Positions 6,107 to 31,814 of a stretch of DNA of 32,000 nucleotides are shown here, piece after piece. The stretch spans positions 1,620,001 to 1,652,000 of the forward strand of contig NZ_LT549890.1 in assembly GCF_900079115.1 (NCBI RefSeq). The letters are read 5' to 3'. How positions within the stretch are numbered: position 1 is the first letter of the stretch; each line of letters begins with the position of its first letter. Below the pieces are notes generated by a model that was given only the letters and a program-made list of their open reading frames with translations, was not told where the DNA came from and did no database searches. This DNA is from Saccharolobus solfataricus. Its GTDB lineage: Archaea > Thermoproteota > Thermoprotei_A > Sulfolobales > Sulfolobaceae. Position numbers and translations under genes: made by a program.

Positions 6107-6847
6107 GATATTACCTCACGCTTGTCTCTTATTAGTATTATCGAAAATGTAGAATCAATTATTCTTATCTGTTTTTAGAGAAACAAATTGAAATCGCAAT
6201 GGATCCGTAAATCACCCTCGGCTTTAAGGTCTTCACTCTCATTCTACAATGTTACTTCATGATATTGAAGTGGAATTGGCTAACTGACAACAAGGTTGGC
6301 TTCTCAGTTGGCGGTTACAAGGTAGTTGATAGGGGCTTCCTTGGTAAATCCTCTACTTGGTTGATTGGTTTCTCGGATTTTAGGAGGCATGTGGAGTTCT
6401 TCGGAATTTTCTTGAGGAGGTATTGGAGGGCCTTATGCGACGAGTAAGGAGATGGCAGAGCTTTTCGTTTACGTTATTGCCTTGATATACAACTCCTTGA
6501 TCTACACGTCTGTTTTATCGAGAGTTCCCGAGAGTCAGCTTTCCAGTTGACTCTCGTAAGGAGTTAGCAAGGGTAGCGTAGGATATGTCAAAAATTCTGT
6601 TTTTATCTATACTTGAATGTTTTCCGTCATAATATAAAATTAATCTTCCGTTGTATTGAAAGATATAATTATATTTCTCTCCTATTATCGTTATTCAATT
6701 ATTTGCGTCTGGAGCACTCTTACGAGAGGTTGAAGATGTTCGTTAAAAATAATTTAGATGAGGCGATGGGTCTGATGAAAATCTTAAAATTCTCTTAAAG
6801 CCTCATAACTGTTGCCCTTATTCCACGACCATCTAAGAAAAATTTTA

Positions 6848-6885
6848 AGTAACAGGGGTGTAACTTAGTAACAGGGGTGTAACTT
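6848..6885. repeat. Perfect tandem duplication of a 19-mer (agtaacaggggtgtaactt x2) abutting the ATPase start codon
   Basis: Read directly: 6848-6866 equals 6867-6885. The TTG start of the 6885 ORF begins at the last base of the second copy. Confidence 0.9.
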
Positions 6886-7184
6886 TGCTATTTAGCGTAG
6901 AGCCTAAAGAATCTTTAAAAGATTTATTCAATAGGGAAGAAGAAGTAAAGAAATTTCTTCAGTGTGTAAATAATGAAAGAATGATAATAGTGACGGGGCT
7001 AAGAAGAGTAGGAAAATCAAGCTTAGTATTAGCTGGATTAAATTCCTTAAACAGAGGTTATATATTAGTAGACCTAAGAAAAATATTTGATAACGTATCG
7101 AAGAGAATAACTCCAGATAAACTTTATGAGGAAATACACTTTAACCTAACAAAAATTAACAAAATTTATCTTGATGGGGGTTAA
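6885..7184 (+). pseudogene. N-terminal fragment of an archaeal ATPase (Arch_ATPase/DUF234-type), truncated by an IS605-family insertion
   Basis: EPKESLKDLFNREEEVKKF...IIVTGLRRVGKSSL has the typical N-terminus and Walker A of this family. The ORF dies where the IS left-end hairpin begins. Confidence 0.7.
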
Positions 7185-7699
7185 GGGGGCGGAAGACCCT
7201 TCCTCAAGGGGATGGATAGCCCCCTTATATTTTAAATATAAGAACGACAGATATACAATTAATGCCTAACGTAGGATTCCCCTTCCATGCTTACACAGAC
7301 GAACAGACGTTGAGGGCGTTAAAAGCCCAGTTGAGGCTAGCATGTGAGGTATATAGCACCCTACGTTAGGCAGATGCGTATTTCTACCAAAGGGATGGGA
7401 AAGGACTTACACAGACGGAGTTAAGACAGATGGCCCTTAACTTAAGAAAGCAGGACGAGGAGTACAAACAACTTCACTCACAAGTTGTTCAGCAGATAGC
7501 AGATCGTTTCTACGAGGCTAAGAAGAGGTTTATGGACGGGCTAGCACGCTTTCCAAGAGAAAAGAAACCGCACAAGTACTACTCGCTAGTTTACTCAATC
7601 GGGATGGAAAGTGTTGAGCTTAAGGGAAATAAGAAGAAAGAGTAATCACAAGAAGAAGTTAATGAAGCTCTACCTATCTCATCTAGGAGTCTTCAACGT

Positions 7700-7778
7700 T
7701 AGTGCTTTCAGAAAGTCTATAGCTTTAGACAAAGGATATACCACTAGATCATAGTCTAAGAACTTTTCCAAAATACTA
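7700..7778 (-). mobile_element. 79-bp MITE related to the ISC1048 ends (SM1-like), inside tnpB
   Basis: Begins and ends with TA. Imperfect terminal repeats TAGTGCTTTCAGAAAGT / TAGTATTTTGGAAAAGT. A near-identical copy in the opposite orientation lies at 21572-21650. Both ends resemble the ISC1048-like termini at 25575 and 26624. Confidence 0.85.
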
Positions 7779-8095
7779 GTGATAGTACACAGGGACTTCC
7801 CTCTAGATAAGGTGAAGAGAATCATAGTGAAGTTAGAGCCGTCTGGGAGAATATACATCATTTTCGTGATTGATTACGAGTTCAAGGCCCTCCCATTTAC
7901 TGGAAAAGTTGTCGCGATCGACGTGGGAATTGAGAAACTCGTAACTACCTCCGATGGTCAGTATTTCCCTAACCTGAAGCCTTTTGAGAGGGCCTTAACC
8001 AAGGTAAGGGAACTTCATAGGTCTCTTTCGAGGAAGAGATTTCTCTCTCATAACTGGTTCAAAGCTAAGGTTAAGTTGGCTAGGGCTTATGAGCA

Positions 8096-8280
8096 CTACT
8101 ACTTCCAGTAAGTCCATAGTCTAGTATTATTTTATAAAATATTATTGAAAATAATTCCATTGTATTGGCCTTAATGAATACATAAAACTTATCAACTTGA
8201 TTAATTGATTCCTTGTTATCACTATTTATAAGAAACTTATTAATGAGTTATAAAGTATAACAAATTTCTGGAAACAGTAG
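8096..8280. mobile_element. 185-bp AT-rich MITE inside tnpB (size class of Sulfolobus SM2; name uncertain)
   Basis: It splits the conserved tnpB stretch ...LARAYEH | VKNLRRD.... Terminal inverted repeats are ctactacttccag / ctggaaacagtag. It has no coding capacity. Confidence 0.65.
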
Positions 8281-8597
8281 TGAAGAACTTGAGGAGAGAT
8301 ATTTACATGAAGCTCGGTAAGTATTTTGCAGAACACTACGATACCGTGGTAATGGAGGATATTAACGTTAAGAAGCTGGTTGGTAAGTCTCTCAAGGTAA
8401 TGAGGAGGAGGCTTCACGATATTGGTTTTTACGAGTTTAGGACGATACTGGAGTATCAACTAATAAAATACGGTAAGAAGTTCACCCTCGTCGATCCAGC
8501 ATACACGTCGATGACTTGTGCTAGATGCGGATACGTTAGGGAAGATTTAACGGGAGTGTTCTCATGCAGTCATCTTATTCGATATCATATAGTAAAA

Positions 8598-9101
8598 TTA
8601 TATCAAGTTCTCTCTAATATACTGTACTCCCTTCAAGTAAGTCTCATTTAAGGGAGTTCCCTCCCTTGAAAATACGTGAGGGTACATTACATTCAACAAG
8701 GCCAAACTGTACTCCGTCATCCTCATACTCCTAGTAACAGCTTTAGTATCCCTAGCCAGCCTCGCTAACCTACACCAAGAATTATGACTCTCCACAAGAT
8801 AAGTATACTTCTTACCCGCTACACGATTATCGAGAACTTGATAAACACAATAGTAGTCAGTATAGTTTACCTCACTCCTAGGTAACCAACCCAAACGAAA
8901 AGTCCCATAACTCCTATCCCCAAACTCATAGAAAGGCACCCCATCAGCAGTCCAAATCCACAAATCCTCCCTCATCACTCCATGCCTAACACGGAAATAA
9001 GTCCAGAACTCGTCAAACACCGTAGACTTAGCTGTGAAATTCTTGAGCTCACCCTTCAAGATCGTTAGATACGTGAAGGCCCTTATCTCAATCCTCCTCA
9101 C
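8598..9101 (-). CDS. IS1 InsB-like DDE transposase segment, 167 aa (GTG start overlapping the upstream stop)
   Basis: ...[12 protein letters not shown]...[29 protein letters not shown] resembles the C-terminal D...E catalytic region of IS1 transposases. The junction with the upstream ORF is TAGTG. Confidence 0.65.
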
Positions 9102-9355
9102 TAGGCTGTATTCAATGGTTTACCTTCAACTCTTGATATTGCCCTCATGCTCATCCTGTTCAAGTACTCCTTTAAGATTCTCTTCCTCTGTTCCCTATCC
9201 ATTCTGTGCTTTAACGCGTCGTAAAACGTCCTTCCACACGCTTTACACTTGTATTTTGCTTTCCCTCTAGATGAACCGTTCTTTACTACTCTGTTAGAGT
9301 TACATGATGGGCATGTTGGTCTGCTCTCTCTTCTCCTTATCCCTACTTTCCTCAA
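9101..9355 (-). CDS. IS1 InsA-like zinc-finger/HTH protein, 84 aa
   Basis: CPSCNSNRVVKNG...YKCKACGRTF is the CxxC...CxxC finger typical of IS1 InsA. It sits upstream of, and is coupled to, the InsB-like ORF. Confidence 0.7.
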   Translation of the reverse strand: MRKVGIRRRESRPTCPSCNSNRVVKNGSSRGKAKYKCKACGRTFYDALKHRMDREQRKRILKEYLNRMSMRAISRVEGKPLNTA

Positions 9356-9491
9356 GATAAGGTTGATGGTGGGATTCCCGTTTTCGTGATTTGAACTCCC
9401 AAGGAGTAGGCTGCTAATGCTAATGCAATATCCTTTAGCTCGTACTTTCTCGGCTTAAGATTTAAATTTCTTAGAATCATAAGTATTAATT

Positions 9492-9551
9492 GTGCGAGGG
9501 TTACGAGGTTCATCCTGGTAACCCTCACAAAAAATCTCGTAACCCTCGCAC
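9492..9551. repeat. Perfect 16-bp inverted repeat (gtgcgagggttacgag / ctcgtaaccctcgcac, 28-nt spacer) in the 334-bp leader of the IS1-like element
   Basis: Read directly. The same palindrome occurs in the leader fragment at 24765-24817 plus 27084-27090, where its 3' arm is split by an IS110-family insertion. Confidence 0.9.
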
Positions 9552-9887
9552 ATAAGCTTTTTCAGAGGCTGTTTTCATGTTCTAATTCATTGGCTGCATC
9601 TCGATCGAAACGACTAATTGTGGAAATTTCTAGCCTGATTTAATTTTACTATATGATATCGAATAAGATGACTGCATGAGAACACTCCTGATTTAACTCT
9701 CTCCGACCGCGTGTTTGTTTGTCCTAAATGCGGTTGGATAGTAGACCGTGACTATAATGCTTCCTTCAACATCCTACACAGATCGGGGTCGGAACGACCC
9801 TTAGTGCCTGTGGAGCTCTGCCTTCTACCGCTGGCAAGGTGGGGGTATGAAGCAGGAAGCCCTGTCCGTTAGGGCAGGGTAGTTCAC

Positions 9888-10391
9888 TTTGGAAAACTCC
9901 ACCTAAAGAAGAGAAAACCAGACGTCATACATGAAGTTAAAGAATTAGGATCTAGACTCGTGATGGAGGAGCTAAAAGAATTATTTGCAAAAAGCCAATA
10001 CTACTCCCTTATAATGAAAGCTATGGGCGATTCATGGATCCATTGCGAATTGTAATTTGTAAATAATACGTTGTAAAAATGTTAATATTGATAATCGTGT
10101 ATCTCTGCTAATTAGTCGTCTTCATTTAGTTAATTTCGTAACAATATTCGAAATAAAGTGAATTCGCAATGGATAACTGAATCTCTCAAAGCTATAGCAA
10201 CCTTAGAAAATGCCAGATGGAAAAACATAATGGATTACGTAATAGCAAAAACTGAAAGAAAAATCAGTAACACCACACTTTCCAGAGATCTAAGAAAACT
10301 AATGAAAATGGGGTTTATAGAGAAAGAAAACGACGAATACAGAATCCCAGATCCAATTACGAGGTACACATTGCTAAAAGACTTTCCTTAA
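9888..10391 (+). pseudogene. C-terminal fragment (winged-helix DUF234-like part) of the same archaeal ATPase, additionally split by a MITE
   Basis: An open frame runs from 9888 (FGKLHLKKRKPDVIHEVKELGSRLVMEELKELFAKSQYYSLIMKAMGDSW) and continues after the 135-bp MITE as ITESLKAIATLENARWKNIMDYV...TLSRDLRKLMKMGFIEKE. About 150 aa of the central region are missing. Confidence 0.6.
10039..10173. mobile_element. ~131-135-bp MITE whose ends match the IS256-like element
   Basis: Terminal inverted repeats tccattgcgaatt / aattcgcaatgga. The left end ggatccattgcgaattgtaatttg resembles both ends of the IS256-like element (3524 and 6206). It has no coding capacity. Confidence 0.7.
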
Positions 10392-12841: not shown

Positions 12842-12942
12842 TATAGTACTTAGGATTCTCTGGAGTGGGGAAGTTACTAGGGTAGCGTTGGAGGAAGCTA
12901 GAAATATGAACGCTAAGTTAATAGTCTATAGGAACGCGGGAC

Positions 12943-13137
12943 AAAGTACGACTAGCATTTATAGGAAAATCGTTACACTTTTACGTTACGTTAAAAATAT
13001 ATAACGAATCTTTCCTAGTTAGATGAGAAATGTTTATTGATAAGCTATAATATTAAGAAGTACAATGAAAGATATTTATAAATACATGGATAAATATTTT
13101 GACTTTTTATGATAAGGGAATTTCCTAAAACTACTAA
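12943..13137 (+). repeat. ~185-195-bp AT-rich repeat U (MITE-like, imperfect 18-bp terminal repeats), inverted copy at 24527-24721
   Basis: The reverse complement of 24527-24721 aligns along its whole length with few mismatches. Internal termini are tagcatttataggaaaat / reverse complement of tagtagttttaggaaatt. It abuts a truncated ISC1359-like copy. Confidence 0.85.
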
Positions 13138-13769
13138 CTCTGCAACATCCCCTTGTACTTCTTGTACATCTGGGCCTTGGCAGATATGACGAAGTCCAAG
13201 CCCAACTCCAAGAGGTATCTAATCACTTCGTTCACTGCGAACTCCCTGTCCGCGAAGACCATGACGAGCCTCAGCTTGTCCTCCTCCAACTCCTTCACGA
13301 TTACCTCCATCACCGCCTTGAAACCTTCAGCTATGTTCTTCACGGTCACTGGGATCACGTCCAAGAAGCTCCTCGTCCTCCCCAGGAGGAAGATCGCAGC
13401 TTGAACCAGTCCCCACGACGTCCCCTTAGTTGGCTTTATCCTACTCAAGAAACTCTTGTTAGCGTGGTATTGAGGTATGGCATGGAAGTCCACTGCTACC
13501 CTCCTGTCCCTGACTCCCCTTAACGTCATCCTCCCCATCTTCCTCAACGCATCCCTCACGTCCTCAACTTGAACCGCGTTCAACTTTCTCAACGCTCTTC
13601 TCCCATCTTTTCCCAACCTGCTCAAGTAGCTCCCACTCGCCTTAAGCAAGGCACTGAGGAGTTCCTCAGGGAAAAGTATTTTAGTGAGGACCGAGTAAAT
13701 TATCTTGAGGGCAGACCTGGCGAAGTCCCGGTTGAACTTCGCCGGTTTAGTTGTATTCTCATGCTTCAA
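13134..13769 (-). pseudogene. N-terminal ~210 codons of an ISC1359-like (IS4 family) transposase; C-terminal part deleted
   Basis: Residues from IKPTKGTSWGL to KKYKGMLQ are near-identical to the ORF at 23800-24526. The ORF ends artificially 2 codons into non-IS sequence. Confidence 0.75.
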
Positions 13770-15766: not shown

Positions 15767-17749
15767 TTAATGACTCTTGTGCTCCCTATGTAGAGGTTGT
15801 CCATTGATTCTCAGTTGTCTAGGTAAATAGATAGTAGGATTCTTATCAAAGAACCCGTCTGGTATAAGTCGGAATCCCGCCATTTCAACAGGCATCACTG
15901 GCCAATCCTCTATTCTTACTACGTGCTCTACTCCTAATGTATACCATATCACTAGATCCTCATCTACGATAGATCTTTTCTTTAATATGTATTTAGGAAG
16001 GCCATCGTTAGCTCGCAAATAAGGATAGTCTCCACTAGCGTATCTCTCCTCTTCATTGTATGGAGTTACCCACAGATGATAATTTATGTAAGCACCACGT
16101 CTTCTTACATAGGAATCGTCCGGTAGTGGAGGTAAAACATTATGTCCCGGTACTAGTCTATAGGCTACCGGTAAACCCAGATAGTTTTTCTTTTGTATGT
16201 TCACTATTTTCCAATATCTCCCAGTTTGAGGATTTACATGTCTTCTGGCATCAGCTTCATTCTCCAATAAATTCTCCTCTGCGAAAAATGCATTACCTAC
16301 TGGGTTCTTTTCAGTTATAGGTTCTCCTCTTAGATTTACTTCATAAATTCTATTCCTTAAACCATCAACGTTTATATTTAACCTTATGTTAAAGAAATGT
16401 ATATGAATTGGGGCATAAACCTCTGGTGTAACTCTAGTGCCATATTTTGGTGTTGGGTCTTTTTCGCTTATACTATCATCGTTTATTATTCCAGTTAGTT
16501 TTACTAGAAATTCGATACTGCCATCCTGGTAAAAATACCAGAAGAATCCATAATCGTAATTAGCTAACGTCGCCCAAAATGAGACAACAAGCCTTCTGTT
16601 TCTTCTTACCTCGGACTTACCACTTCTTAAATCGGTATGCCTCCATAAGACTCCAAAGTCCTCTTCATGAACACAAATAGCTTTCTTTATTTTAATAGGA
16701 GTCCCATTAGAACTAACCCTTGTCACATCTAAATGATATATAACTTCTCCAAAACAATCACAGTTATATAGATCATAGTTTCCGTGTGATAATGGCACAA
16801 TAAAGTTTCCCAACCCATAATCACCTGCATCCAACACCATTTTTTTATTATGGAATGGAGAGGGATCTCCGTAAGGTACCATTAAATCCACTACAGAAGC
16901 CCTATATAATATCATTCTTTCTCGATTATTTTCATCAATATATCTAACATCATAAATAACTAAACCCTCTCTAGGTGTATAACCAATTCTTAATCTCCAT
17001 CTATACCAACTTATCTCCCAACCATTAATTTTAATACTTGAGGATAATGGTTGTCTTATCTCAATAGGCTTCAGATCGTCGCCAAATATCTTACCTAGCT
17101 TTTCAGGCGTATAATTAGCATCTTGTAATGGGAGAGGTGAAGTTCCATGATCGTCTATTCTGATAACCTCCATTTTATCTAGATCAACCCAAGGCATAAG
17201 CCCATGAACTGGCCTACCATATCCATTGTCCTCTATATCTTTTTTTACCCACATATACCCTATTGCTACCCTTCTACCTCGCAACTCCTCGTCAACATGA
17301 CCGGGAGCCCAACAGTCAACCATTAGCAAGTTCAAATCGTTTATTAAGATTCCCCTTTTAGTCAAAGCCTCTTGTACTCTTTTGTCATTTCGAACTGCTT
17401 TTTCACATTCTCCAAATTCATCTAACGTAATAGGTGGATAAGCGGCATCAATACTTCTTATTTCCTTCACTACGTTATTATCTAAGGATATTATTGCTTC
17501 ATAAACCTTTCGGTCTTGAAAATTATAGTATTTAACTAATGATTCTCTCTCTATTTTAATATTTTTGTTATTTCTCCATTCCAAATATTCTTGTTTTTTA
17601 GGCTCTTTCAATTCCACTGAGAAGAATTTAACTACTTTAGCATCTAAATTTAACTGTCTTTTTAAAACTTCCACGCTCTTTCTTATCTCTTCTTCATTTA
17701 ACGGGTCTAACGGGGATTTAGATATAGCTACTTGTTCCTCCTCGACCAT
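15767..17749 (-). CDS. Copper-containing (topaquinone) primary amine oxidase, 660 aa
   Basis: The TPQ consensus TLANYDY (T-x-x-N-Y-D-Y) is present. Copper ligands are the HIH pair in VYAPIHIHFF and the His in GVEHVVRIEDWPVMP. Length and motif order match the family. Confidence 0.9.
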   Translation of the reverse strand: MVEEEQVAISKSPLDPLNEEEIRKSVEVLKRQLNLDAKVVKFFSVELKEPKKQEYLEWRNNKNIKIERESLVKYYNFQDRKVYEAIISLDNNVVKEIRSIDAAYPPITLDEFGECEKAVRNDKRVQEALTKRGILINDLNLLMVDCWAPGHVDEELRGRRVAIGYMWVKKDIEDNGYGRPVHGLMPWVDLDKMEVIRIDDHGTSPLPLQDANYTPEKLGKIFGDDLKPIEIRQPLSSSIKINGWEISWYRWRLRIGYTPREGLVIYDVRYIDENNRERMILYRASVVDLMVPYGDPSPFHNKKMVLDAGDYGLGNFIVPLSHGNYDLYNCDCFGEVIYHLDVTRVSSNGTPIKIKKAICVHEEDFGVLWRHTDLRSGKSEVRRNRRLVVSFWATLANYDYGFFWYFYQDGSIEFLVKLTGIINDDSISEKDPTPKYGTRVTPEVYAPIHIHFFNIRLNINVDGLRNRIYEVNLRGEPITEKNPVGNAFFAEENLLENEADARRHVNPQTGRYWKIVNIQKKNYLGLPVAYRLVPGHNVLPPLPDDSYVRRRGAYINYHLWVTPYNEEERYASGDYPYLRANDGLPKYILKKRSIVDEDLVIWYTLGVEHVVRIEDWPVMPVEMAGFRLIPDGFFDKNPTIYLPRQLRINGQPLHREHKSH

Positions 17750-17900
17750 GATTTTTACACCATCTATATTTATCTCTCTATTTTATATATTTAAATATAA
17801 TTTGTACAAATATATATTACTAGGTAATACATAGAAATATCAAGTATTTCTTAAAAATACTAGTTATATTTATTTTTTATGATTTCTCTTATAACTGCTA

Positions 17901-19289
17901 GTGGAAAAAATGGGAAAGGAAACTGAAAAAAATACGCAACAAGGATTAGCTAAAGGTGTGGTAGGCTACAGAGAGGTGTTAGCTCAAGGCATTGCATCAG
18001 GGGCTCCTGCCGCTGCTACTATTGGAACATTAACTGGTGCAGCTGCATTCGCTTATGGCGCTCTTCCACTAGCTGTAGCAATAGCATTAATAATGGTTTT
18101 ATTGGATGCCACTAGACTATCTATAATAGCGCGCTATGTTCAGAGTGCGGGAGGTATCTACGCTTTTATTGAAAGGGGTTTAGGTAAGAAGGTTGCCTTT
18201 GTCGCTAGTATGGCATATACAATATATATATTTGCGGTGATTATCTTTGTATATTTAATCATGGGCTTAATGGTACCTACAGGGATTGAAGAACTTGGAA
18301 TAAATTTGCCATCGTGGATTTGGATACCTTTAGGACTAGTTAACGCTATAGTAAGTGTTATAATTTCATACTTAGGTATAAGACCATCCTTAAAGTTCAC
18401 CTTAATCATGAGTATAGCTGAAATAACTGGCATAATAGCTACTTCAATTCTTATATTTTCCAAAATCCCGCCCGATATCAATACCTTTACGCTTGCTTAT
18501 GTACCACCCCCAAAGATATCAAATTTAGGTTTAGGAGTTTCCTTTGGAATTCTGGCTTTTACGGGTTATGAAACTGTATCAGTATTGGGTGAAGAGGCTA
18601 AAGATCCAAGGAATAATATAGCAAAAGGAGTTTTTACAGCAGCCCTTCTATTAGGTATCACATATATAGTGGGTTCAGAAGCGTTTACCGTGGGATGGGG
18701 AGTTAATAACATGAGTACATATTTTAACTATTTAGCACCGGGATTAATATTGGCTAAAACCTTCGGAGGTACAATACTACTAATAATCCTAACAGCCCTT
18801 CTAATAAATAGTAACCTTGCTTGTGCAACCGGATTTACTAATTGTGTGACAAGAGTTATGTACGCTATGAGTGTGGACAAATTATTACCATCTAAATTGA
18901 GTTCAATACATCCGAAAAGAAGGACTCCGCATATTGCCAGTCTTTTCACCTTCATTTTTACAGCTTTATACTTCATTATAATGTCTCTGATATTCTCACC
19001 TTCCAATATTTTTATAGCTACTGGAATTACTACTACGTTCGGATTTTTAATAGCGATATTTGTAGTAAATATAAGTATGTTAATTGTAGTGAAGAAGAAT
19101 AACGCATTAAATATAGGAAATATACTTATTGTAGCAATTGTTGAAGCGATAATTGGCTATGTATTTTATGCGACTGTTATAACGAGTGCAATCAATGTGC
19201 CGGTATTAATTGGAGTTTTAACGTTAGTTTTATGGGTGGTTGGGGGCATAATTTATCTTACGCTTAAAAGGTTTTTTACCCAAAAGTAA
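17901..19289 (+). CDS. APC-superfamily amino acid/amine permease, 462 aa
   Basis: About 12 hydrophobic segments and the typical motif GYETVSVLGEEAKDPRNNI. It is divergent from the amine oxidase gene. The start may instead be ATG 17910. Confidence 0.85.
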   Translation: MEKMGKETEKNTQQGLAKGVVGYREVLAQGIASGAPAAATIGTLTGAAAFAYGALPLAVAIALIMVLLDATRLSIIARYVQSAGGIYAFIERGLGKKVAFVASMAYTIYIFAVIIFVYLIMGLMVPTGIEELGINLPSWIWIPLGLVNAIVSVIISYLGIRPSLKFTLIMSIAEITGIIATSILIFSKIPPDINTFTLAYVPPPKISNLGLGVSFGILAFTGYETVSVLGEEAKDPRNNIAKGVFTAALLLGITYIVGSEAFTVGWGVNNMSTYFNYLAPGLILAKTFGGTILLIILTALLINSNLACATGFTNCVTRVMYAMSVDKLLPSKLSSIHPKRRTPHIASLFTFIFTALYFIIMSLIFSPSNIFIATGITTTFGFLIAIFVVNISMLIVVKKNNALNIGNILIVAIVEAIIGYVFYATVITSAINVPVLIGVLTLVLWVVGGIIYLTLKRFFTQK

Positions 19290-23604: not shown

Positions 23605-24526
23605 ACGTCAGTATGGGAATCTCATTTTTCTGATATAAATGATAATATATGTAAGATTGAACCACACCAGTTTTATTCAAATATAACTGCATATATTTTA
23701 TGAAAATGACAGTTAATAAGTCAGTTTTCAATAGCAGAATATAAATATATAGAATTAATTTCACGTAGCTGGAAGGAGGTGCATAGGGTTAGCTGGAGTT
23801 TAGGGGAATGGCGTCTTCACTTCACGGAACGCGCGTCCTTGTTCCACTCTTACCTCCCGATCGAGGAGATTCGAGAGGGAGACCGAGAACTCCCACAACT
23901 TTACCTTCCTCCAAGAGCGGATCAAGAACCAGACATTCAAGAGAAGATAGGAAAGCAGAACGAGAACCAGTTCCTTCCTCACGTCACAAGTCCTAGTCCT
24001 GATCCTGAACTCCTCAAGAGAGCGGAAGGCGTTCTCTATCCCCCACCTCTCCCTGTACATCTCGGCAAGGACTATGGCATCATAAAGATCCATCTCCCTC
24101 CTCACGAGGAAGGCAATAATCTTGCCGTCTTCCTTCCTCAGGATAATGAGATAAGCTCCACTCCCATATCTCACGCAGAGAAATCCAGTATATCTAACTC
24201 CGCCAAAACTCACATCCACATCCTGCAACATTCCCTTGTACTTCTTGTACATCTGGACCTTGGCAGATATGACGAAGTCCAAGCCCAACTCCAAGAGGTA
24301 TCTAATCACTTCGTTCACTGCGAACTCCTTGTCCGCGAAGACCATGACGAGCCTCAGCTTGTCCTCCTCCAACTCCTTCACGATTACCTCCATCACCGCC
24401 TTGAAACCTTCAGCTACGTTCTTCACGGTCACTGGGATCACGTCCAGGAAGCTCCTCGTCCTCCCCAGGAGGAAGATCGCGGCTTGAACCAGTCCCCACG
24501 ACGTCCCCTTAGTTGGCTTTATCCTA
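23605..24526 (-). mobile_element. Truncated ISC1359-like IS (copy B: the transposase-3' end with its terminal repeat)
   Basis: It starts with acgtcagtatgggaatctc (23605-23623). Similarity to copy A covers 24223-24526 and then stops abruptly at repeat U'. Confidence 0.75.
23800..24526 (-). pseudogene. C-terminal ~240 codons of an ISC1359-like IS4-family transposase
   Basis: IKPTKGTSWGLVQAAIFLLGRTRSFLDVIPVTVKN...FADKEFAVNEVIRYLLELGLDFVISAK...RERWGIENAFRSLEEF shows DDE/YREK-type features. The first ~10 codons of the tracked ORF come from repeat U'. Confidence 0.75.
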
Positions 24527-24721
24527 TTAGTAGTTTTAGGATATTCCCTTACCATAAAAAGTCAAAATATTTATCCATGTATTTATAAATATCTTTCATT
24601 GTACTTCTTAATATTATAGCTTATCAATAAGCATTTTTCATCTAACCAGGAAAGATTTACTATATATTTTTAACGTAACGTAAAAGTGTAACGATTTTCC
24701 TATAAATGCTACTCGTACTTT
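24527..24721 (-). repeat. Repeat U' (inverted copy of 12943-13137)
   Basis: See 12943-13137. The outer ~10 nt (ctcgtacttt) merge into the IS1-like leader fragment. Confidence 0.85.
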
Positions 24722-24817
24722 CTCGGCTTAAGATTTAAATTTCTTAGAATCATAAGTATTAATTGTGCGAGGGTTACGAGGTTCATATTGGTAACCCTCA
24801 CAAAAAATCTCGTAACC
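24712..24817 (+). mobile_element. IS1-like leader fragment, part 1 (homologous to 9443-9544)
   Basis: gtactttctcggcttaagatttaaatttcttagaatcataagtattaattgtgcgagggttacgagg... matches the intact element. It is cut inside the 3' palindrome arm at 24817. Confidence 0.85.
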
Positions 24818-25619
24818 TATATATAGGTTAATTAGCTGGGGAGAGTAATATTCTCCTCAGCTGGGGAAAAATGGTCGAATGGGAAATTGAAGCAAAGTCT
24901 TCGGGCGAGGGCGTGACGAGCCCCTACAGTCGGACTGAACATTGTGAAAATATTCACGAATATAGGTGTGACACAAGCGTAGGGGTAATTGGAATAGACG
25001 TATCAAAAGAACACTTGGTAACAAGTAAGGGGAGGGTGAGAAAATTCACAAACAACGAGAAGGGCTACGAAGAAATACTAACCATGAAGCCAAACATCAT
25101 CGTAATAGAACCCACAGGAGTATACTCAACAAGACCTTGCCAATACTTCAAAGAAAGAGGAGTGAAAGTCCTACTAGTCAGCCTTGCTATGGAAAGAAAA
25201 GGACGTAAGGGGAAGAAAACAGATTTTTACGACGCAGAAAAACTTGAAAACATGGTAAATAAGTCTAGAGAATACGTTAACAACCCCTTGAAAGAGTTAG
25301 TATCACTCTACCTCTTCATGAAGGATGTGCAAACGAAACAAGAGAACAGGTTAAGGAGAGCTCTCTTCCTCGTGAGCGACGAGGAGAAGTTGAGCGAGGA
25401 GAGATTGGAGAAGTTCTCTAAGGGAGACTTCTCTGACGTAAAACTGTATCAACTGGAATACACTGGTACAGTACTACGTGAGATTCAAGTCCTAGCGAGG
25501 ACACTAATTCAAACACGAGAAGAGTTGAAGGAGGTGAGGAAAATGATAGAGGGTAATGTGCCTCAAGACCACGTTAGTGTTTCCGAAAAGTTTATAGATT
25601 AGTATTACCAGATTGAACT

Positions 25620-26072
25620 ATGCAAGATTTGGTTCAAGCTTATAAGGAAGAGAAGAACGCGAGAATTAAGGAGAGGATTCTTGCGGTGAAGCTGCACGTA
25701 GTTGATGGTAAATCGGAGAAAGAAGTTTCGAAAATGCTTAACAAGGGCTATTCCACGATAAAATTGTGGATTGGCAAGTACAAGAAAGAAGGTCTTGATG
25801 GACTAAAGGACAAGCCCAGATCAGGAAGACCCAGAAAAGTAGAAGAGGAAAAGATAAAACAAATTCTGGAAGATAAGCCCCAAAAATACGGAATACAACA
25901 AGAGTACTGGACAATGAAAACACTCAAGATAGCACTACAAGAACAAGGAATAGAATACAAGAAATCCAGACTATACGAACTAGTCCACGAACTAGGATAC
26001 AACCTAGTAAAACCCAGACCTACCAACATCCAAGCAGAAAAGGACAAGTGGGAAGATTTTAAAAAAAAATAA
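25620..26072 (+). CDS. IS630-family transposase, N-terminal HTH part (150 aa), ending in an A9 run
   Basis: SEKEVSKMLNKGYSTIKLWIGKYKKEGLDGLKDKPRSGRPRK is the typical paired HTH of IS630/Tc1 transposases. The stop follows directly after A9 (26061-26069). Confidence 0.75.
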   Translation: MQDLVQAYKEEKNARIKERILAVKLHVVDGKSEKEVSKMLNKGYSTIKLWIGKYKKEGLDGLKDKPRSGRPRKVEEEKIKQILEDKPQKYGIQQEYWTMKTLKIALQEQGIEYKKSRLYELVHELGYNLVKPRPTNIQAEKDKWEDFKKK

Positions 26073-26077
26073 AGAAA

Positions 26078-26605
26078 TTGGAAAGAAAGGCACTATTCTT
26101 TCTAGACGAGTGTAGGACAGTAATTAGCACGTCAATTAAGAAGGTTCTAGCTAAGGTTGGCAGTAAGCCCGTAATGCGCGTCAATATAGGTTTTTCCTCA
26201 ATCTATGTTATTCTAGCTATAAACGCTTGGACCGGCGAAGTAGTGGTTTCTCTTGCTAAAAGGCCTAACTCTGAATCCGTTAAGTATTTCTTGAGGTACT
26301 TTAAGAGGCGTGTGGGTAGTGGTAGGGTTTACATGGTCATGGATAATTACTCTCCTCACAAGACTAAGGGTACGCTTGAGGTTTGTCGCAGGAAGGGTAT
26401 TCATCCCGTGTTTACTCCTCCTTACTCGCCTGAGCTTAATATGGCTGAGGCGGTCTTCAAGTCCCTCAAGAACTACATGAGCAATAAAATATTCTATACG
26501 ATAGAAGACGTTAAAAACTGTATTAAACAGTTCTTTGAAGAAAATAAGTATAGATTTAATCTTAATGCAATAACATACCTAGGATTAGATAAAATTGAAG
26601 TCTAA
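26078..26605 (+). CDS. IS630-family transposase, DDE catalytic part (175 aa), in the -1 frame relative to the upstream ORF
   Basis: FFLDECRT...YMVMDNYSPHKT...PPYSPELNMAEAVFKSLK contains the DDE triad context. The frame is open back into the A9 run. Confidence 0.75.
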   Translation: MERKALFFLDECRTVISTSIKKVLAKVGSKPVMRVNIGFSSIYVILAINAWTGEVVVSLAKRPNSESVKYFLRYFKRRVGSGRVYMVMDNYSPHKTKGTLEVCRRKGIHPVFTPPYSPELNMAEAVFKSLKNYMSNKIFYTIEDVKNCIKQFFEENKYRFNLNAITYLGLDKIEV

Positions 26606-27083
26606 GAACTTTCCGGAAATACTAGTGTTACTCACGATTTCCGGAATAGGGAAACTGGCAGCTGGGATTATAATTGGGATTGTGGGTGATATTAGGCGCT
26701 TCCCAAGACCTGAATCCTTCGTTGCTTATTGCGGTTTAGACCCGGTAGTTGAGAGGAGTGGTAGGATTGAGGTTAGAAAGGGTATCTCCAAGAGGGGTAA
26801 CAAGTATTTGCGTAGCTTGTTTTATTTCCTTGCCGAGACTCAATATTCGCGTAACCCTACTCTCCTTAAGCTCCACGAAGCTCACAAGGACAAACTGAAG
26901 GGTAGGAAACTGTACACTGCCTTAGCTAGGAAGTTGGCTAGGATAGTGTGGAGTGTTTGGTATAATAATAAGCCTTATGAGGTGAAGTGACCCTCCCCTA
27001 TCACGCGGATTGAAAGAGTCCGCGTGGCAATAGTAGCTGATACTATGCTCAAAATTCGACCGAAAGATTTATTACTGAACGCC

Positions 27084-27227
27084 CTCGCACATAAGCTTTT
27101 TCAGAGGCTGTTTTCATGTTCTAATTCCTTAGCTACATCTCGATCGAAACGATTAATTGTGAAAATTTCTAGTTTAATTTTATTTTACTATATGATATCG
27201 AATAAGATGACTGCATGAGAACACTCC
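27084..27227 (+). mobile_element. IS1-like leader fragment, part 2, including the terminal inverted repeat
   Basis: ctcgcacataagctttttcagaggctg...tatgatatcgaataagatgactgcatgagaacactcc matches 9545-9688. It ends 17 nt from the stop of the 199-aa gene. Confidence 0.85.
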
Positions 27228-27244: not shown

Positions 27245-27844
27245 TTATTTGGAAGTTTGCCTTATATCCTTTAACACATTTTCTATTTCCTTGAATAGTT
27301 CGTCAATAGCCTTTTCTATGCAGTTATCTTTTATCTTTTTTAACTCCTTTTTATATTCTTGACAGCATCCTCTGCCTCTAAATTCTTTTATCTGCTCATT
27401 ACAAATTTTTAAAATAAAGTCCTCAATACAGCAATAATATCCGAGAAAGACGAAGTACATACGAAATTTTTTACTTCCTACTGAACATGAAAATCTATAA
27501 ATATCATATTCATTGTTAAGCTTTATCACGTCAGATGTGTATATTCCGTAATCTTTTGCAGTTTCCTTTACGCATTCTACATAATCTAAGGTACAGTGTT
27601 CCTTATCTATAAATATTATGTAGTTCAAGGAGAATCTCTTAACATCGTTTTTAACAAACTTAAGTACACTCTCAATCCCAATACCTATAGGCAAACTTTT
27701 ACCCTTAGCACCGCTCTCCGGAATAAACAGTAATAGCTCACAGTATTTATCCTTGTTCTTCTCAAGAGCGTTTCTGACAATCTCCCTATCAAAAGATCCG
27801 TCTCCAAAAACTATTTCGGTTGTAGCATTACTGCTGAATTTCAT
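27245..27844 (-). CDS. Cys-rich 199-aa protein, possibly Toprim/DUF4276-like; partner of the upstream ATPase
   Basis: The motif order EIVFGDGSFDRE (N-term), YIIFIDKEH (middle), YYCCIEDFIL (C-term) mirrors the acidic E/D-G, DxD/E and E motifs of DUF4276/RloB/OLD-Toprim modules. Its ATG overlaps the ATPase stop (TGATG). The fold assignment is an inference. Confidence 0.6.
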   Translation of the reverse strand: MKFSSNATTEIVFGDGSFDREIVRNALEKNKDKYCELLLFIPESGAKGKSLPIGIGIESVLKFVKNDVKRFSLNYIIFIDKEHCTLDYVECVKETAKDYGIYTSDVIKLNNEYDIYRFSCSVGSKKFRMYFVFLGYYCCIEDFILKICNEQIKEFRGRGCCQEYKKELKKIKDNCIEKAIDELFKEIENVLKDIRQTSK

Positions 27845-29238
27845 CAGTGTATTTTTAATGCAGTATATCTTAAATCTTCATAGTATAGCCTATCCAAAAC
27901 CTCCTCAGATGTAAGAACTTCATATTTATCATCGTTAATTAATATAAACCTAACCTTATCCGACCGCTTTTCAGCTAAATACGCGTAAATATCACTGCTT
28001 TGTGTGGTAATAAGTATTAAGTCAACGTCTATTTTCAGTAGAAGATCATAGAACATCTTAAGCAAATCCGGATGCAATGCGAAGCCCTCCAGATCATCTA
28101 TCAGAATAATTCTCGGCTGGTAAATTACATATAGCAAGATGAAATTCAATAAGCTCTTATAACCATAACCAAGTTCGTTGATTGACACATCAGTTCTGTC
28201 ATTAAAAAGCACCCTAAGTTCATTCCCAGAAGATAGATAAACGTAGAATATGTTAGGGTCAAATGAGTTCAATAATTCAGTAACTTTACGTAAACTTGAT
28301 TTCACGTAAGGGAGTACCTTATCGTCAATCACAAAGTCAATATCGTGGGAGTATATTAAGAGTACGTTCACATCTGCAGACCTATTAACTTGTGAGTAGG
28401 AAAACTCAGCCTTATAGTAGGTGTAGTTTACAAACAGTTCGGTTTCAGCAATTTCTGTTGAGATATTCCCTCTGAACTTCCTTATCTTATCCTCATTTTT
28501 ACCTAACATTGCTATAGCTTCCAATATGGTTGTCTTCCCTACGTTATTCTTACCCAGAATTACCCCTATTTTAAACTCTGGAAAAATCATCTTGAAATCC
28601 CTAAACCTTCTAAAATTACTTATCCTAATTCCAATTCCCAGGCTTGACAGTCGTTCCGGTAAGCTTAATATATACTGAGTGTTTACATAAGGAGAGTCGT
28701 AAAGCCTGACAAATGCTCCTTTACCGTATTTGTAAATCCAGGTGGAATAAAGCGTGTAAGGATGGCTCTTTACTATACTTATGGGTATTAACAAGGGATG
28801 AGGTTCAACGGGTCTCCACGAATCTTTAGGATCATATTTTAACATTTCACCCACTATGGAATTTTCACTCTTCTCAGACAGAGGTTTATGTCCCATTACG
28901 CTTATAGGCTTAAAAGGGAAAGGATTTCCCTTACTAAAGAGCTCCTTTTTTATACCATCCTTCTCGATGTAGAAAAAGGGGACATCGCCAGTCCAAATTA
29001 CAACACCTCCTCTTTCCATAAATTTAAATAGCGGGGTCTCATTTACGGGTATTTTAGGATATTCATATAGGGAATATGGAATAACGTCCGTACCGAAAAT
29101 TAGGAAAGCCCTCTCTTTTTGAGAGTTAACCCAATCAACTACTGAATTATAATCTACGACTTTTACCTCCTTAAGTGGCTTACTGCAAAGTTCGTTTGCC
29201 CAACTGTATGTTTTACCGCAATAGATTGCCATTTCCAT
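27844..29238 (-). CDS. AAA_21/ABC-type ATPase (aa ~200-464) fused to an unassigned ~200-aa N-terminal domain
   Basis: IRISNFRRFRDFKMIF...ILGKNNVGKTTILEAIAMLG is the Walker A (aa 229-236). LGYGYKSLL is signature-like. IILIDDLEGFALHP is the Walker B plus LHP (aa 377-390). ITTQSS is at the H-loop position. I could match no motif in the N-terminal domain. Confidence 0.75.
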   Translation of the reverse strand: MEMAIYCGKTYSWANELCSKPLKEVKVVDYNSVVDWVNSQKERAFLIFGTDVIPYSLYEYPKIPVNETPLFKFMERGGVVIWTGDVPFFYIEKDGIKKELFSKGNPFPFKPISVMGHKPLSEKSENSIVGEMLKYDPKDSWRPVEPHPLLIPISIVKSHPYTLYSTWIYKYGKGAFVRLYDSPYVNTQYILSLPERLSSLGIGIRISNFRRFRDFKMIFPEFKIGVILGKNNVGKTTILEAIAMLGKNEDKIRKFRGNISTEIAETELFVNYTYYKAEFSYSQVNRSADVNVLLIYSHDIDFVIDDKVLPYVKSSLRKVTELLNSFDPNIFYVYLSSGNELRVLFNDRTDVSINELGYGYKSLLNFILLYVIYQPRIILIDDLEGFALHPDLLKMFYDLLLKIDVDLILITTQSSDIYAYLAEKRSDKVRFILINDDKYEVLTSEEVLDRLYYEDLRYTALKIH

Positions 29239-29259: not shown

Positions 29260-29268
29260 TATAAAAAG
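29260..29268 (-). promoter_or_regulatory. TATA box for the ATPase operon (leaderless geometry)
   Basis: The minus strand reads ctttttata, centred ~26 nt upstream of ATG 29238. Confidence 0.45.
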
Positions 29269-29427: not shown

Positions 29428-29638
29428 TAGTAAAATTAAATTAAACTAGAAATTTTCACAATTAGTCGTTTTAATCGAGATGTAGCTAAGGAATTAGAAC
29501 GTGAAAAACGGCCTCTGAAAAGCTCATGTGCGAGGGTTATGAAATCTTTTTGTGGTCGTACTAGAATGAGCCTCGTAAACCCTTTCACATAAGCTTTTCT
29601 AAAATAATGTCTTTGTTCAAATTTCTATATCTTAAGCG
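29428..29638 (-). mobile_element. Diverged, truncated IS1-like leader remnant in inverted orientation (terminal repeat lost)
   Basis: The reverse complement aligns with ~9455-9645 (cttaagat...ccctcgcacatgagcttttcagaggccgttt...ctaattgtgaaaatttctag...taattttacta) with many mismatches. Confidence 0.7.
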
Positions 29639-29693: not shown

Positions 29694-30200
29694 TCATGAC
29701 TGTTTGAGAACACTCCACTCTAACAATTCTTTAATCTTACTCTCATCATAATTAACGTATATTTTGCCATTTTTCTTCTCTATAATTACATATTCCTTCA
29801 AAAGACCCGCATGAGCTATGAAATTCCTCTTTAACTCCTCTTCCGACAATTGTTTACTTCTTCCTTCCTCATCTTCGCTGTAAATTTCACTATATTGCTT
29901 TCTTTCTCCCTCTTTCAGATCTTTTGCCAAATTATAAATAATATTAATCTCCCTACTTATTAACGGTCCGGCGTTCATAGAAAACTTTTCTAAAATCTTT
30001 CCAAACTCCTCAATCTCCTCTTTAGTGTTATCCTTAACCTTACTACATACATAATCACATATAACATCAACCCAGGCACGATCTGGGTAAAGTTTCTCAT
30101 TTATCTTTATTTCTTTACCTTCAATTTTCACATTATTTAGGAAATACTGATAGTAATCATTATTAAACTCCTTTTTCTCTTTACATTTTTCAATAACCAT
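29694..30200 (-). CDS. Stand-alone HEPN-domain protein of the Csx1/Csm6 type, 168 aa
   Basis: RNFIAHAG (R125-x4-H130) is the Csx1/Csm6 HEPN RNase motif. Its ATG overlaps the stop of the CARF gene (TAATG). Confidence 0.7.
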   Translation of the reverse strand: MVIEKCKEKKEFNNDYYQYFLNNVKIEGKEIKINEKLYPDRAWVDVICDYVCSKVKDNTKEEIEEFGKILEKFSMNAGPLISREINIIYNLAKDLKEGERKQYSEIYSEDEEGRSKQLSEEELKRNFIAHAGLLKEYVIIEKKNGKIYVNYDESKIKELLEWSVLKQS

Positions 30201-30925
30201 TAGGGGGCATTTAACTTTAACGACTTAATTATAATCCTCTTTATAGGATCATCGCTTAACCCAACATTTATCTGAGTTAAATCAAAAGTATTCTTTTTCT
30301 CTTCCCTCTTAAATATCTCCATGTAAGTATACTCTTTATAGAGATTCGTTGGTACATAATTTATTACCTTAAATTTAAGATCTAATAATGAAGTGAGATT
30401 ATACAAAACACGAAAAACTATTATTGGCAAATAATTTACTCCATGTGTAGTATCTAAAACTATTTCATCATCATCAGCATCCTTCAATTCCTCATAAAGC
30501 TTCTGAACTAGAAGTGTTTCTACAATATAAGCATAAAGGTATGAAGGTAACTCCCTTTCTTTTAACTCGATCTTACCGTAGTTAAAATCATTTATCTTAC
30601 CTACAGCTGGAATCACTATGATACGCGTTTTATTAGCAGCTTCCTTATTAAGAGCATTTTCCACTATACAACTTATGTATTCTTTCACTTTATTTACCCA
30701 GCTTTCGTAGTCAGATGGTGTTTTCAGCTTTGAACAATTCTCAGCAACTTTATTCTTCGGCTTAGACTGTGGAGTAAGGACAGAATCTTGCACTATTAGA
30801 ATAATTTTTGAAGCGTTGTCGTAAGTAGATATCGTGCTAAAGCTTTTAATCTCCTTATCAGGACGCTTATATTCTACTTCAAACCAACCTGAAGGATCAC
30901 CCCACGTGGAAACGTAAACTACCAT
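30200..30925 (-). CDS. Stand-alone CARF-domain protein (Cas DxTHG / Csx1 N-terminal type), 241 aa
   Basis: The N-terminal strand [10 protein letters not shown] is followed by [13 protein letters not shown] (DxTHG at aa 158-162), the defining motif of the Cas_DxTHG/Csx1 CARF family. The length fits a single CARF domain. Confidence 0.7.
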
Positions 30926-31131: not shown

Positions 31132-31563
31132 CTACTTTTGTTTATAGTCCTTTATATGAATTACGAAAGGTAATTCTTTGACTTTTCTAATAAGTCTTTC
31201 ATCAGCAGTATAAACTTTCTCGTTGAGAACCTTACCCAATGCTATATATGCTGCATCATATATTGTTATACCGTATCTAAGAGATAAGGAAACCATTTCG
31301 TCCAATATATTTTCGAATCCGTAAAGCGTTATCTGAAAATCGGATAAAATTTTCCCTACCTCTTCCAGTTCCTTTTCTCCCAGACTATAAGTATACTTTA
31401 ACCCGTTTAGCACTTCAAAGGGAAGAATACAAGGTGCTAGTAAATCCTCTAAGCCTTTCACATATGCCTCCTTAAGAATTAACGCTTCTTTACTATAATT
31501 CTCATTAACAAACCATTTTATTACAACTGAAGCATCTACAACTGCCAATTCTTGTCTCTCCAT
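31132..31563 (-). CDS. vapC: PIN-domain toxin VapC, 143 aa
   Basis: AVVDASV (D10), PFEVLN, IYDAAYIALG and TADERL give the PIN acidic residues in canonical order. It overlaps the upstream antitoxin ORF. Confidence 0.8.
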   Translation of the reverse strand: MERQELAVVDASVVIKWFVNENYSKEALILKEAYVKGLEDLLAPCILPFEVLNGLKYTYSLGEKELEEVGKILSDFQITLYGFENILDEMVSLSLRYGITIYDAAYIALGKVLNEKVYTADERLIRKVKELPFVIHIKDYKQK

Positions 31564-31814
31564 TCCCTTATAATTTCTTCCGAACTCTTACCGCCATAAT
31601 TTAAGAAAAATTCATAAGATCTAACTGAAGCCTCAGCAATCTTCTTATAATCTTTTCTTTTTCCTTTTCTCTTCTCTTCTTCTTCCTCAATTACCTCTTC
31701 TATCTTTCTCCTTATTATCTCACTCCAATTTATATAACTCAACTCATCCATCTTCTTCTTCAACTTCTCATCTATTCTTATACTAATTATAGGCATATGT
31801 AAAAAATATGACAT
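31536..31814 (-). CDS. vapB: VapB-type RHH antitoxin (start possibly at ATG 31796, MPIISIRIDE...)
   Basis: ISIRIDEKLKKKMDELSYINWSEIIRRKIEEVI fits the RHH pattern. It lies upstream of and overlaps vapC. Confidence 0.65.
   Translation of the reverse strand: MSYFLHMPIISIRIDEKLKKKMDELSYINWSEIIRRKIEEVIEEEEEKRKGKRKDYKKIAEASVRSYEFFLNYGGKSSEEIIREWRDKNWQL

Follow-up and report, generated by a model that had tools for sequence, protein, structure and literature searches.

Which function do two overlapping genes have that lie together in an insertion sequence (IS)-rich region of the Saccharolobus solfataricus genome? We addressed this question for a window of 32,000 nucleotides (nt), by which we mean the whole stretch analysed (contig NZ_LT549890.1, positions 1,620,001 to 1,652,000; all coordinates below count from its first letter unless another replicon or locus is named). 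The list of open reading frames (ORFs) places a gene for an ATPase of 464 amino acids (aa) at 27844-29238 and a gene for a 199-aa partner at 27245-27844, both on the minus strand, and the stop codon of the former and the start codon of the latter share 1 base (TGATG). The reading that we favour, with a probability of roughly 0.55, is that they make up a two-component module which is translationally coupled and horizontally mobile. It would be a split archaeal relative of OLD, PARIS and AbiL in which sensing and regulation fall to an ATPase of the ATP-binding cassette (ABC) type fused to an MJECL34 domain, with the partner as a divergent DUF3226/Toprim-like nuclease effector. Such a module would have the same broad design as OLD, Gabija GajA, PARIS AriAB, AbiL and Mad3-4 of MADS.

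The ATPase and its downstream gene

A protein of S. solfataricus shares 100% identity with the 464-aa sequence, and the ORF, its Pfam matches and AlphaFold/Foldseek show the latter to be a fusion of an N-terminal MJECL34 domain (PF27344) and a compact AAA_15/AAA_21 ATPase. The ATPase domain comprises residues 201-464 (27847-28638), as delimited by Pfam and PADLOC matches starting at residue 204 and by alignment with compact relatives. Residues 204-464 match AAA_15 at 4.6e-17 (63.1 bits, cut-off 32.1) and AAA_21 at 7.9e-10 (39.7 bits, cut-off 27). The PADLOC matches are led by AriA at 2.8e-17, which consists of two partial stretches with AbiLi (4.1e-14), PDC-M38A (1.2e-11), NsnB (6.4e-11) and PtuA close behind, and GajA and Old also appear among the lower-ranked ones. 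Using the AlphaFold model of the ATPase (predicted local distance difference test, pLDDT, 88.5) as query, Foldseek returned the heads of SMC, Rad50 and PtuA with E ~1e-10 and a probability of 1.00. The protein is an ABC-type ATPase of the OLD/AriA/AbiLi/PtuA group with an SMC/Rad50-head-like fold, from which the coiled-coil arms are missing.

The ATPase motifs can be located in the sequence and followed through the homologues. The Walker A motif GKNNVGKT (residues 229-236, 28531-28554) contains K235, which is kept in every homologue covering that position, and the ABC signature-like LGYGYK (residues 356-361, 28156-28173) contains G357 and G359, both invariant within the family and in distant relatives. 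Walker B (IILIDDLE, residues 377-384, 28087-28110) ends in the catalytic glutamate E384, which the alignment shows to be invariant in the window family, the compact archaeal ATPases, an ATPase from a Klebsiella plasmid and the OLD nuclease of Methanocaldococcus jannaschii, and the LHP behind it is conserved as well. The H-loop position is occupied by TTQ (residues 411-413, 28000-28008), so that the window ATPase carries glutamine in place of the histidine that characterises AAA_15/AAA_21 ATPases. This Q413 (TTQS) is found in 17/17 full-length homologues of the clade, whereas the compact relatives, the Klebsiella ATPase and the M. jannaschii OLD keep the histidine (TTHS, STHS or VTHS). The original prediction, which was made from the sequence alone, had already named the positions of both ORFs, their 1-nt overlap, the AAA_21/ABC-type assignment, the Walker A, signature-like, Walker B and LHP motifs and the TTQ, and all of these stand after the family, structure and homologue comparisons. 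GajA is reported to have retained nucleotide binding and lost hydrolysis (PMC12796447); with this precedent, the clade-wide replacement of His by Gln makes a switch-like role of the ATPase plausible, and the replacement itself hints at an ATPase that binds nucleotide or switches with it and does not hydrolyse it fast.

The linkage of the two genes is found well beyond the window. We compared 15 distinct MJECL34-ATPase loci, ten of which have an intact partner gene directly downstream, frequently with an overlap of stop and start codon. Four further loci have an intact ATPase gene and a disrupted partner, either through an insertion (L008 and L024) or through a frameshift (L011 and L025), some of these frameshifts possibly being assembly errors. 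The insertion of ~600 nt in L008 (1952-2710) interrupts the partner right behind its GDGHFDR motif, and in L024 (2353-3000) one of similar size separates the ATPase gene from the point where the partner frame resumes. The last locus (L021) has a split ATPase gene, and the partner was not found there. The partner follows the ATPase in every locus with a readable downstream region except L021, and the same is true for three distant partner homologues (20-25% identity, unrelated contigs), each located behind an AAA_15/AAA_21 ATPase of 305-341 aa that has no N-terminal domain and whose best PADLOC matches are PDC-M38A (to 2.6e-26) and AbiLi. Every partner relative examined sits directly after an AAA_15 ATPase. 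Since the distant partners follow ATPases without the N-terminal domain, the core is a wider ATPase-partner module to which the Sulfolobales clade has added MJECL34.

The pair is rare and its surroundings are variable. Only 37 ATPase clusters, spread over genera, were found in 5.8 billion proteins, the full-length ATPase of Saccharolobus islandicus being represented by one cluster (P0020) from a single contig, and scans of genome and metagenome contigs gave few loci (5 and 4, respectively). The neighbouring genes differ from genome to genome and include kinase genes, glycosyltransferases, sugar metabolism genes and PaREP1. A constant place in a housekeeping operon, which had been proposed as the observation that would speak against a defence module, was not seen, and as the neighbourhoods differ in every genome we dropped such an operon as the main explanation.

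The partner protein and its relatives

While a word-indexed search for the partner yielded eight relatives, all from Sulfolobales or Thermoprotei, the exhaustive HMMER search gave 70 representatives of the family, most of them ~200 aa long. All residue counts given here refer to an alignment of 50 family representatives. Together with the AlphaFold model (pLDDT 84.7, predicted template modelling score, pTM, 0.85), which opens with the order strand-helix-strand-helix-strand-helix, the alignments define three acidic motifs: FGDGSFD (residues 13-19, 27788-27808) directly behind predicted strand 1, FIDKEH (residues 78-83, 27596-27613) closing predicted strand 3, and CCIED (residues 138-142, 27419-27433) opening the helix 140-147. 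D80 and G135 are present in 50/50 sequences, E82 in 47/50 with Asp in the remaining three, E141 in 48/50 and H83 in 43/50, and positions 19 and 142 each hold Asp or Glu in 49/50; position 15 is Asp in 36 and Asn in 14. The acidic motifs that had been pointed out beforehand are thus a property of the family (D80, E82, E141). The Cys pairs named along with them (YYCC, GCC) exist in the window protein but are not family-wide, as C138/C139 and C160/C161 are limited to the Sulfolobales clade (7-8/50), where they might form stabilising disulfides or a clade-specific metal site.

Toprim domains have a Glu after strand 1 and a DxD after strand 3 (PMC12065111). In the partner model D15 and D80-x-E82 are located at Toprim-like positions, although the chemistry differs, with D/N for E and DxE-H for DxD. 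From the ORF, the HMMER family, the AlphaFold model and the hhalign comparison described below, we regard the partner as a candidate divergent DUF3226/Toprim-like metal-dependent nuclease from an unannotated family of ~200-aa proteins.

The connection to DUF3226 came from the ATPase side. Using a compact ATPase as tblastn query we arrived at the M. jannaschii plasmid pDSM2661_1 and at 4-kb plasmids of Klebsiella and Escherichia coli, where an AAA_15 ATPase gene is followed by a DUF3226 gene. The DUF3226 proteins contain VEGDDD or LEGITD, then LDAD or DIDQEH, then AIED, which is the order and approximately the spacing of FGDGSFD, FIDKEH and CCIED in the partner, and the DIDQEH of the M. jannaschii protein has the same D-x-E-H pattern. 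When the partner profile was run on 301 ORFs, those located after these ATPases ranked at the top with E of only 0.02-0.18. Aligning the Sulfolobales clade with four DUF3226 sequences by hhalign gave a score of 31.9 over 155 columns (E 5.7e-4, probability 29.5%) with all three motifs in register, D15 being matched to the Glu and D80-x-E82 to the DxD. Column-shuffled decoys scored 13.0 +/- 2.2 (maximum 17.4), a reversed one 21.5 and unrelated alignments ~15, and other combinations of alignments gave weaker scores than the Sulfolobales clade.

Further links lead to the same superfamily. The DUF3226 structure (PH0156, PDB 2P62) is reported as the top HHpred match (>97%) for AriB, the Toprim protein of lactococcal PARIS (PMC11381338), and the enterobacterial DUF3226 proteins show sub-threshold matches to OLD-like_TOPRIM (0.023 and 0.099). 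Mad4, a DUF4276 protein, belongs to the Toprim superfamily as well (PMC12065111). Its PADLOC model mad4 matches the partner homologue P0044 at 6e-5 (residues 11-102) and the consensus of the partner clade at 0.0066; nine other close homologues gave no match to it. One member of the partner family matches PDC-M38B at 2.8e-4. Each of these links is weak, and they are consistent with one another.

AAA_15 and DUF3226 genes are nearly the sole cargo of ColE1-type plasmids of 3.8-4.2 kb, for which >140 records exist, mostly from Klebsiella pneumoniae, and the pair, as seen in the E. coli and Klebsiella loci L018 and L019, is a candidate cassette for defence or addiction that is carried by clinical isolates. 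A tblastn search for more DUF3226 proteins in the plasmid collection gave near-identical Klebsiella and E. coli copies only, and in the literature search we found no mention of DUF3226 pairs or of PDC-M38.

The MJECL34 domain and the surroundings of the pair

The N-terminal domain (residues 1-200, 28639-29238) had been described as matching nothing recognisable, which did not hold: the precomputed annotation of the identical protein (P0007) and of homologues assigns it to the Pfam family PF27344 (MJECL34), whose function is unassigned, and alignments as well as a profile match in M. jannaschii agree with this assignment. According to the alignment it is more strongly conserved than the ATPase half, with Y6, F48, D51, P54, G77, W82, G84, P87, P143, I168, F176, R178 and D181 being invariant. 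Its profile found no relative among PDB sequences and no match in a copy of Pfam without the PF27344 model, Foldseek did not identify its fold, the matches of the full-length model being dominated by the ATPase half, and no mention of MJECL34 was found in the literature search.

Searching 50 kb of pDSM2661_1 with the domain profile resulted in one matching ORF (42231-43106, 292 aa, E 4.3e-14), i.e. a free-standing MJECL34 protein. It begins 5 nt past the gene for a 630-aa OLD nuclease (43112-45004, minus strand) with AAA_15 and OLD-like_TOPRIM domains, the latter recognised by PF20469 at 1.2e-09 as a positive control. MJECL34 therefore occurs in trans beside a fused ATPase-Toprim protein and in cis on the ATPase of a split pair, which is domain shuffling. 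Of the independent arguments for the partner as the counterpart of the Toprim domain of OLD, this exchange between cis and trans is the strongest.

The plasmid shows additional features. An EVE-domain gene (45391-45825, minus strand) lies ~390 nt upstream of the OLD gene, and EVE, OLD and MJECL34 genes in a row (42228-45825) could represent an OLD system linked to modified bases. The same plasmid carries a split pair of AAA ATPase and DUF3226 protein (8158-9890), NurA with an ATPase, VapBC and a type I restriction HsdR. An N-terminal extension of the protein P0041 was considered as another EVE domain and ruled out (no Pfam EVE match, BLASTP E 0.092). The metagenomic contig L021 contains two copies of the MJECL34-ATPase (1-1085 and 6001-7818); in one of them the MJECL34 part is extended at its N-terminus by 130 aa that match no family, the ATPase part forms an ORF of its own and no homologue of the partner was found after it.

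Upstream of the pair we read from the sequence a TATA-like element, TTTTTATA (29260-29267, minus strand), 22-29 nt in front of the ATPase ATG. It is a putative promoter whose spacing is consistent with a leaderless Sulfolobus transcript. Inverted-repeat comparison identified two copies of a repeat resembling miniature inverted-repeat transposable elements (MITEs), one just downstream of the pair (27082-27227) and one just upstream of it in inverted orientation (29428-29581), 109 nt of the latter (29428-29536) being 87% complementary to the downstream copy. With a third copy at 9498-9688 the MITE-like repeat is present three times (110-190 nt), and two of these copies enclose the pair in the manner of a composite mobile unit. 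Two accessions of the S. solfataricus P2 series (AAK41914.1 and AAK41984.1) exist for the partner, so that the genome may well contain another, identical copy.

The neighbourhood had been described as an IS-rich island with CARF/HEPN and VapBC genes, and Pfam scans and the IS genes agree with this description, except that the ORF at the VapB position has no Pfam match. Next to the pair are two minus-strand ORFs of the Csx1 type, a CARF ORF (30200-30925, 241 aa, Csx1_CARF at 3.1e-25) and a HEPN ORF (29694-30200, 168 aa, Csx1_HEPN at 4.5e-19), which overlap by 1 base; here a Csx1 gene has either suffered a frameshift or is split by nature. They are followed in the window by a PIN/VapC gene (31132-31563), preceded by the small overlapping ORF taken for VapB (31536-31814). 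IS630-type and other transposase genes are present as well. One transposase frame is split into 24871-25602 and 26595-26990 by a nested insertion (24871-26990 in total), and the two ORFs in between (25620-26072 and 26078-26605) read as putative IS630-type helix-turn-helix and DDE ORFs. Repeated IS copies are found at 13140-13439 and 24223-24522 and at 12940-13137 and 24527-24724. Farther away lie a pair of overlapping, coupled plus-strand ORFs without Pfam match (596-1777, 393 aa, and 1774-3459, 561 aa) and, as metabolic genes between IS copies, a 660-aa copper amine oxidase and, in divergent orientation, a 462-aa amino acid permease at 15767-19289.

Possible functions and known systems

In the mechanism that we propose the SMC/Rad50-head-like ATPase would bind ATP and the 464-aa protein as a whole would combine sensor and regulator, with MJECL34 as its input domain for a cue related to infection. 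As effector we propose the 199-aa partner, presumably a very divergent DUF3226-like nuclease of the Toprim type whose acidic cluster (D15/D19, D80-x-E82-H83, E141-D142) would bind a divalent metal. PARIS is controlled by ATP-dependent sequestration and release of its effector (PMC11464382). In a similar way both proteins would probably form a complex in which the ATPase keeps the partner inactive and releases or activates it on the cue, and the freed partner would cleave nucleic acid and so stop virus propagation. The patchy distribution, the variable contexts, the suggested two copies, the MITE-like flanks and the frequent loss of the partner fit a conflict system and disfavour a core cellular role.

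Several results weigh against this reading, and most of them concern the partner. No Pfam, NCBIfam or PADLOC model matches the window partner, including those for DUF4276 (PF14103) and RloB (PF13707), to which it had been likened beforehand, the DUF3226 model (PF11536), PF20469 and those for AriB and DUF4435; the profile-consensus sequences and most homologues received no family assignment from the three collections either. For 50 members of the family, DUF3226, DUF4276, RloB, DUF4435 and OLD-like_TOPRIM are all missing among the 25 most frequent of 69 matched Pfam families. At position 15, which aligns with the catalytic Glu of Toprim, the family has Asp or, in 14/50, Asn. A Toprim-like fold had also been proposed, but when PDB and BFVD were searched with the partner model, Foldseek gave no significant match (best E 0.04 and 0.013, TM <=0.39), and neither 2P62 nor a chain of Toprim, OLD or AriB was among the first 50. 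The fold may be new, or Foldseek may reach its limits with an alpha/beta domain that is small and decorated. Profile searches of PDB sequences, too, yielded only matches at chance level. The hhalign probabilities are low (6.5-29.5%), and the 50-sequence profile matches the four-sequence DUF3226 alignment only in part. Concerning the function, no relative was found on the viral contigs of IMG/VR, and one distant pair is located directly behind an A-type ATP synthase operon. Finally, Cran1 (SiRe_0086), a class 5 OLD protein of the Sulfolobales, is essential and cell-cycle regulated and had no antiviral effect in the assays done (PMC12796447), showing that OLD-like proteins of this order need not be antiviral.

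These points lead to other explanations. The partner could have a new fold and another activity, as another hydrolase, a nucleotide-processing enzyme or a non-catalytic adaptor, and still be the ATPase-controlled output of a conflict or addiction system. Its confidently predicted model without a significant neighbour, the missing family matches, the D or N in place of the Toprim Glu and the His after DxE, which is absent from canonical Toprim, would all be explained in this way. We nevertheless consider it unlikely, because the three motifs are in register with DUF3226 at scores above those of the decoys, the DUF3226 protein of M. jannaschii shares the D-x-E-H, one homologue matches Mad4/DUF4276 and a Toprim domain holds the equivalent position in the M. 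jannaschii OLD operon. Similarly doubtful is a more far-reaching version. In it the partner family would represent a new effector structure with its own metal site made of D-x-E-H and E-D/E, MJECL34 would be a new infection sensor, joined in evolution to ABC-ATPase/nuclease machines in trans (after the M. jannaschii OLD) and in cis (on the ATPase in Sulfolobales), and the ATPase would have turned into a nucleotide-binding switch through the H-loop change from His to Gln, all three together forming an archaea-centred class of defence not recognised before.

The pair might also be a selfish addiction or stabilisation cassette of mobile elements, similar to toxin-antitoxin systems and not antiviral, with the partner as a toxin held in check by the ATPase. 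The related AAA_15-DUF3226 pairs with their dominant place on small ColE1-type plasmids and their occurrence on the M. jannaschii plasmid, the loci with a disrupted partner and an intact ATPase and the MITE-like flanks would suit such a cassette. It is quite unlikely in our view, since the closest modelled systems (PARIS, AbiL, Gabija and OLD) are abortive-infection defences, no relatives were found on IMG/VR contigs and the chromosomal loci are not obviously within integrated elements, even if both functions can coexist. A cellular role unrelated to defence, be it in chromatin, in DNA repair or in the cell cycle, comparable to Cran1 or to a Rad50/RecF-type ATPase with its nuclease, has the precedent of Cran1 as well as the SMC/Rad50-type fold and the neighbouring ATP synthase operon of one distant pair in its favour. 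We judge it improbable: Cran1 is inherited vertically in all Sulfolobales, but our pair is patchy, with the one full-length S. islandicus ATPase cluster seen on a single contig, differs in neighbourhood in every genome and appears to have two copies in the P2 series, and it lies in an IS-rich region between MITE-like repeats with Csx1 and VapC nearby, lacks the coiled-coil arms in its ATPase and has lost the partner to pseudogenisation in ~4/15 loci. We therefore return to the split OLD/PARIS/AbiL-like module as the favoured reading. Archaeal antiviral immunity beyond CRISPR is poorly charted, and the sole characterised archaeal OLD-family protein, Cran1, proved to be cell-cycle related. The pair is a testable candidate in the genetically tractable Sulfolobales with their well-known viruses. 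If the reading is right, the ABC-ATPase/Toprim-like defence theme would reach thermoacidophilic archaea, the ~200-aa partner family and MJECL34/PF27344, and by extension DUF3226, would gain a function, and the shuffling of MJECL34 between cis and trans, between OLD and split systems, would give access to the question of how such ATPases obtain their sensor domains.

How does the pair compare with known systems? The architecture itself, an AAA_15/21 ATPase with a small nuclease-type partner, is known; undescribed in the literature searched are the partner family, for which no curated model exists, the fused MJECL34, the H-loop Gln and the archaeal host range. An AAA_15/21 ATPase with a Toprim-type partner of the RloB or DUF4276 families is also found in AbiL (AbiLi/AbiLii), in MADS (Mad3-Mad4) and in Menshen (NsnB/NsnC) (PMC11464382, PMC12065111), but the window partner matches none of their models, and MADS has eight genes including a methyltransferase and Menshen three. 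PDC-M38 is related through the compact archaeal ATPases beside the distant partner homologues, which match PDC-M38A, and through the one family member that matches PDC-M38B, whereas the PDC-M38A match of the window ATPase reaches no more than 1.2e-11 and PDC-M38B fails to match the window partner. Cran1 comes from the same archaeal order and shares the theme of an ABC ATPase with a metal-dependent nickase, but it is a fused ATPase-Toprim protein, vertically inherited and in an operon with a membrane protein (PMC12796447), in contrast to our split, patchy, mobile-looking and MJECL34-bearing pair.

The OLD nucleases (P2 Old, class 1-4 and the M. jannaschii plasmid OLD) have the same type of ATPase, as reflected by the weaker Old and GajA matches in PADLOC. 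They unite ATPase and Toprim (PF20469) in one chain, while in the window these are separate genes and the ATPase ends at residue 464 without a Toprim domain, PF20469 matching neither of the two proteins. PARIS resembles the pair in having two adjacent, separate genes, the first for an AAA_15/21 ABC ATPase (AriA being the best PADLOC match) and the second for a small effector with acidic motifs, and through 2P62, the HHpred match of AriB, to which the window partner is weakly similar (PMC11381338). It is distinct in the size of the effector (35 kDa for AriB versus 199 aa, with no AriB/DUF4435 match), in lacking MJECL34, in the coiled-coil insertions of AriA, which the shorter ATPase domain of the window protein (264 aa) does not have, and in the H-loop His, for which the window protein has Gln; the host of our pair, furthermore, is a thermoacidophilic archaeon. 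The AAA_15-DUF3226 pairs are different in their first motif (EG instead of GDG/GNG), and the Pfam DUF3226 model misses the window family, but they share gene order, tight coupling, partner size (210-241 aa) and the motifs (V/L)EGxxD, (I/L)DxD or DxEH and IE(D) in the same order. The M. jannaschii OLD, with a homologue of the N-terminal domain of the window protein encoded immediately after it, ties MJECL34 to the same ATPase-Toprim theme.

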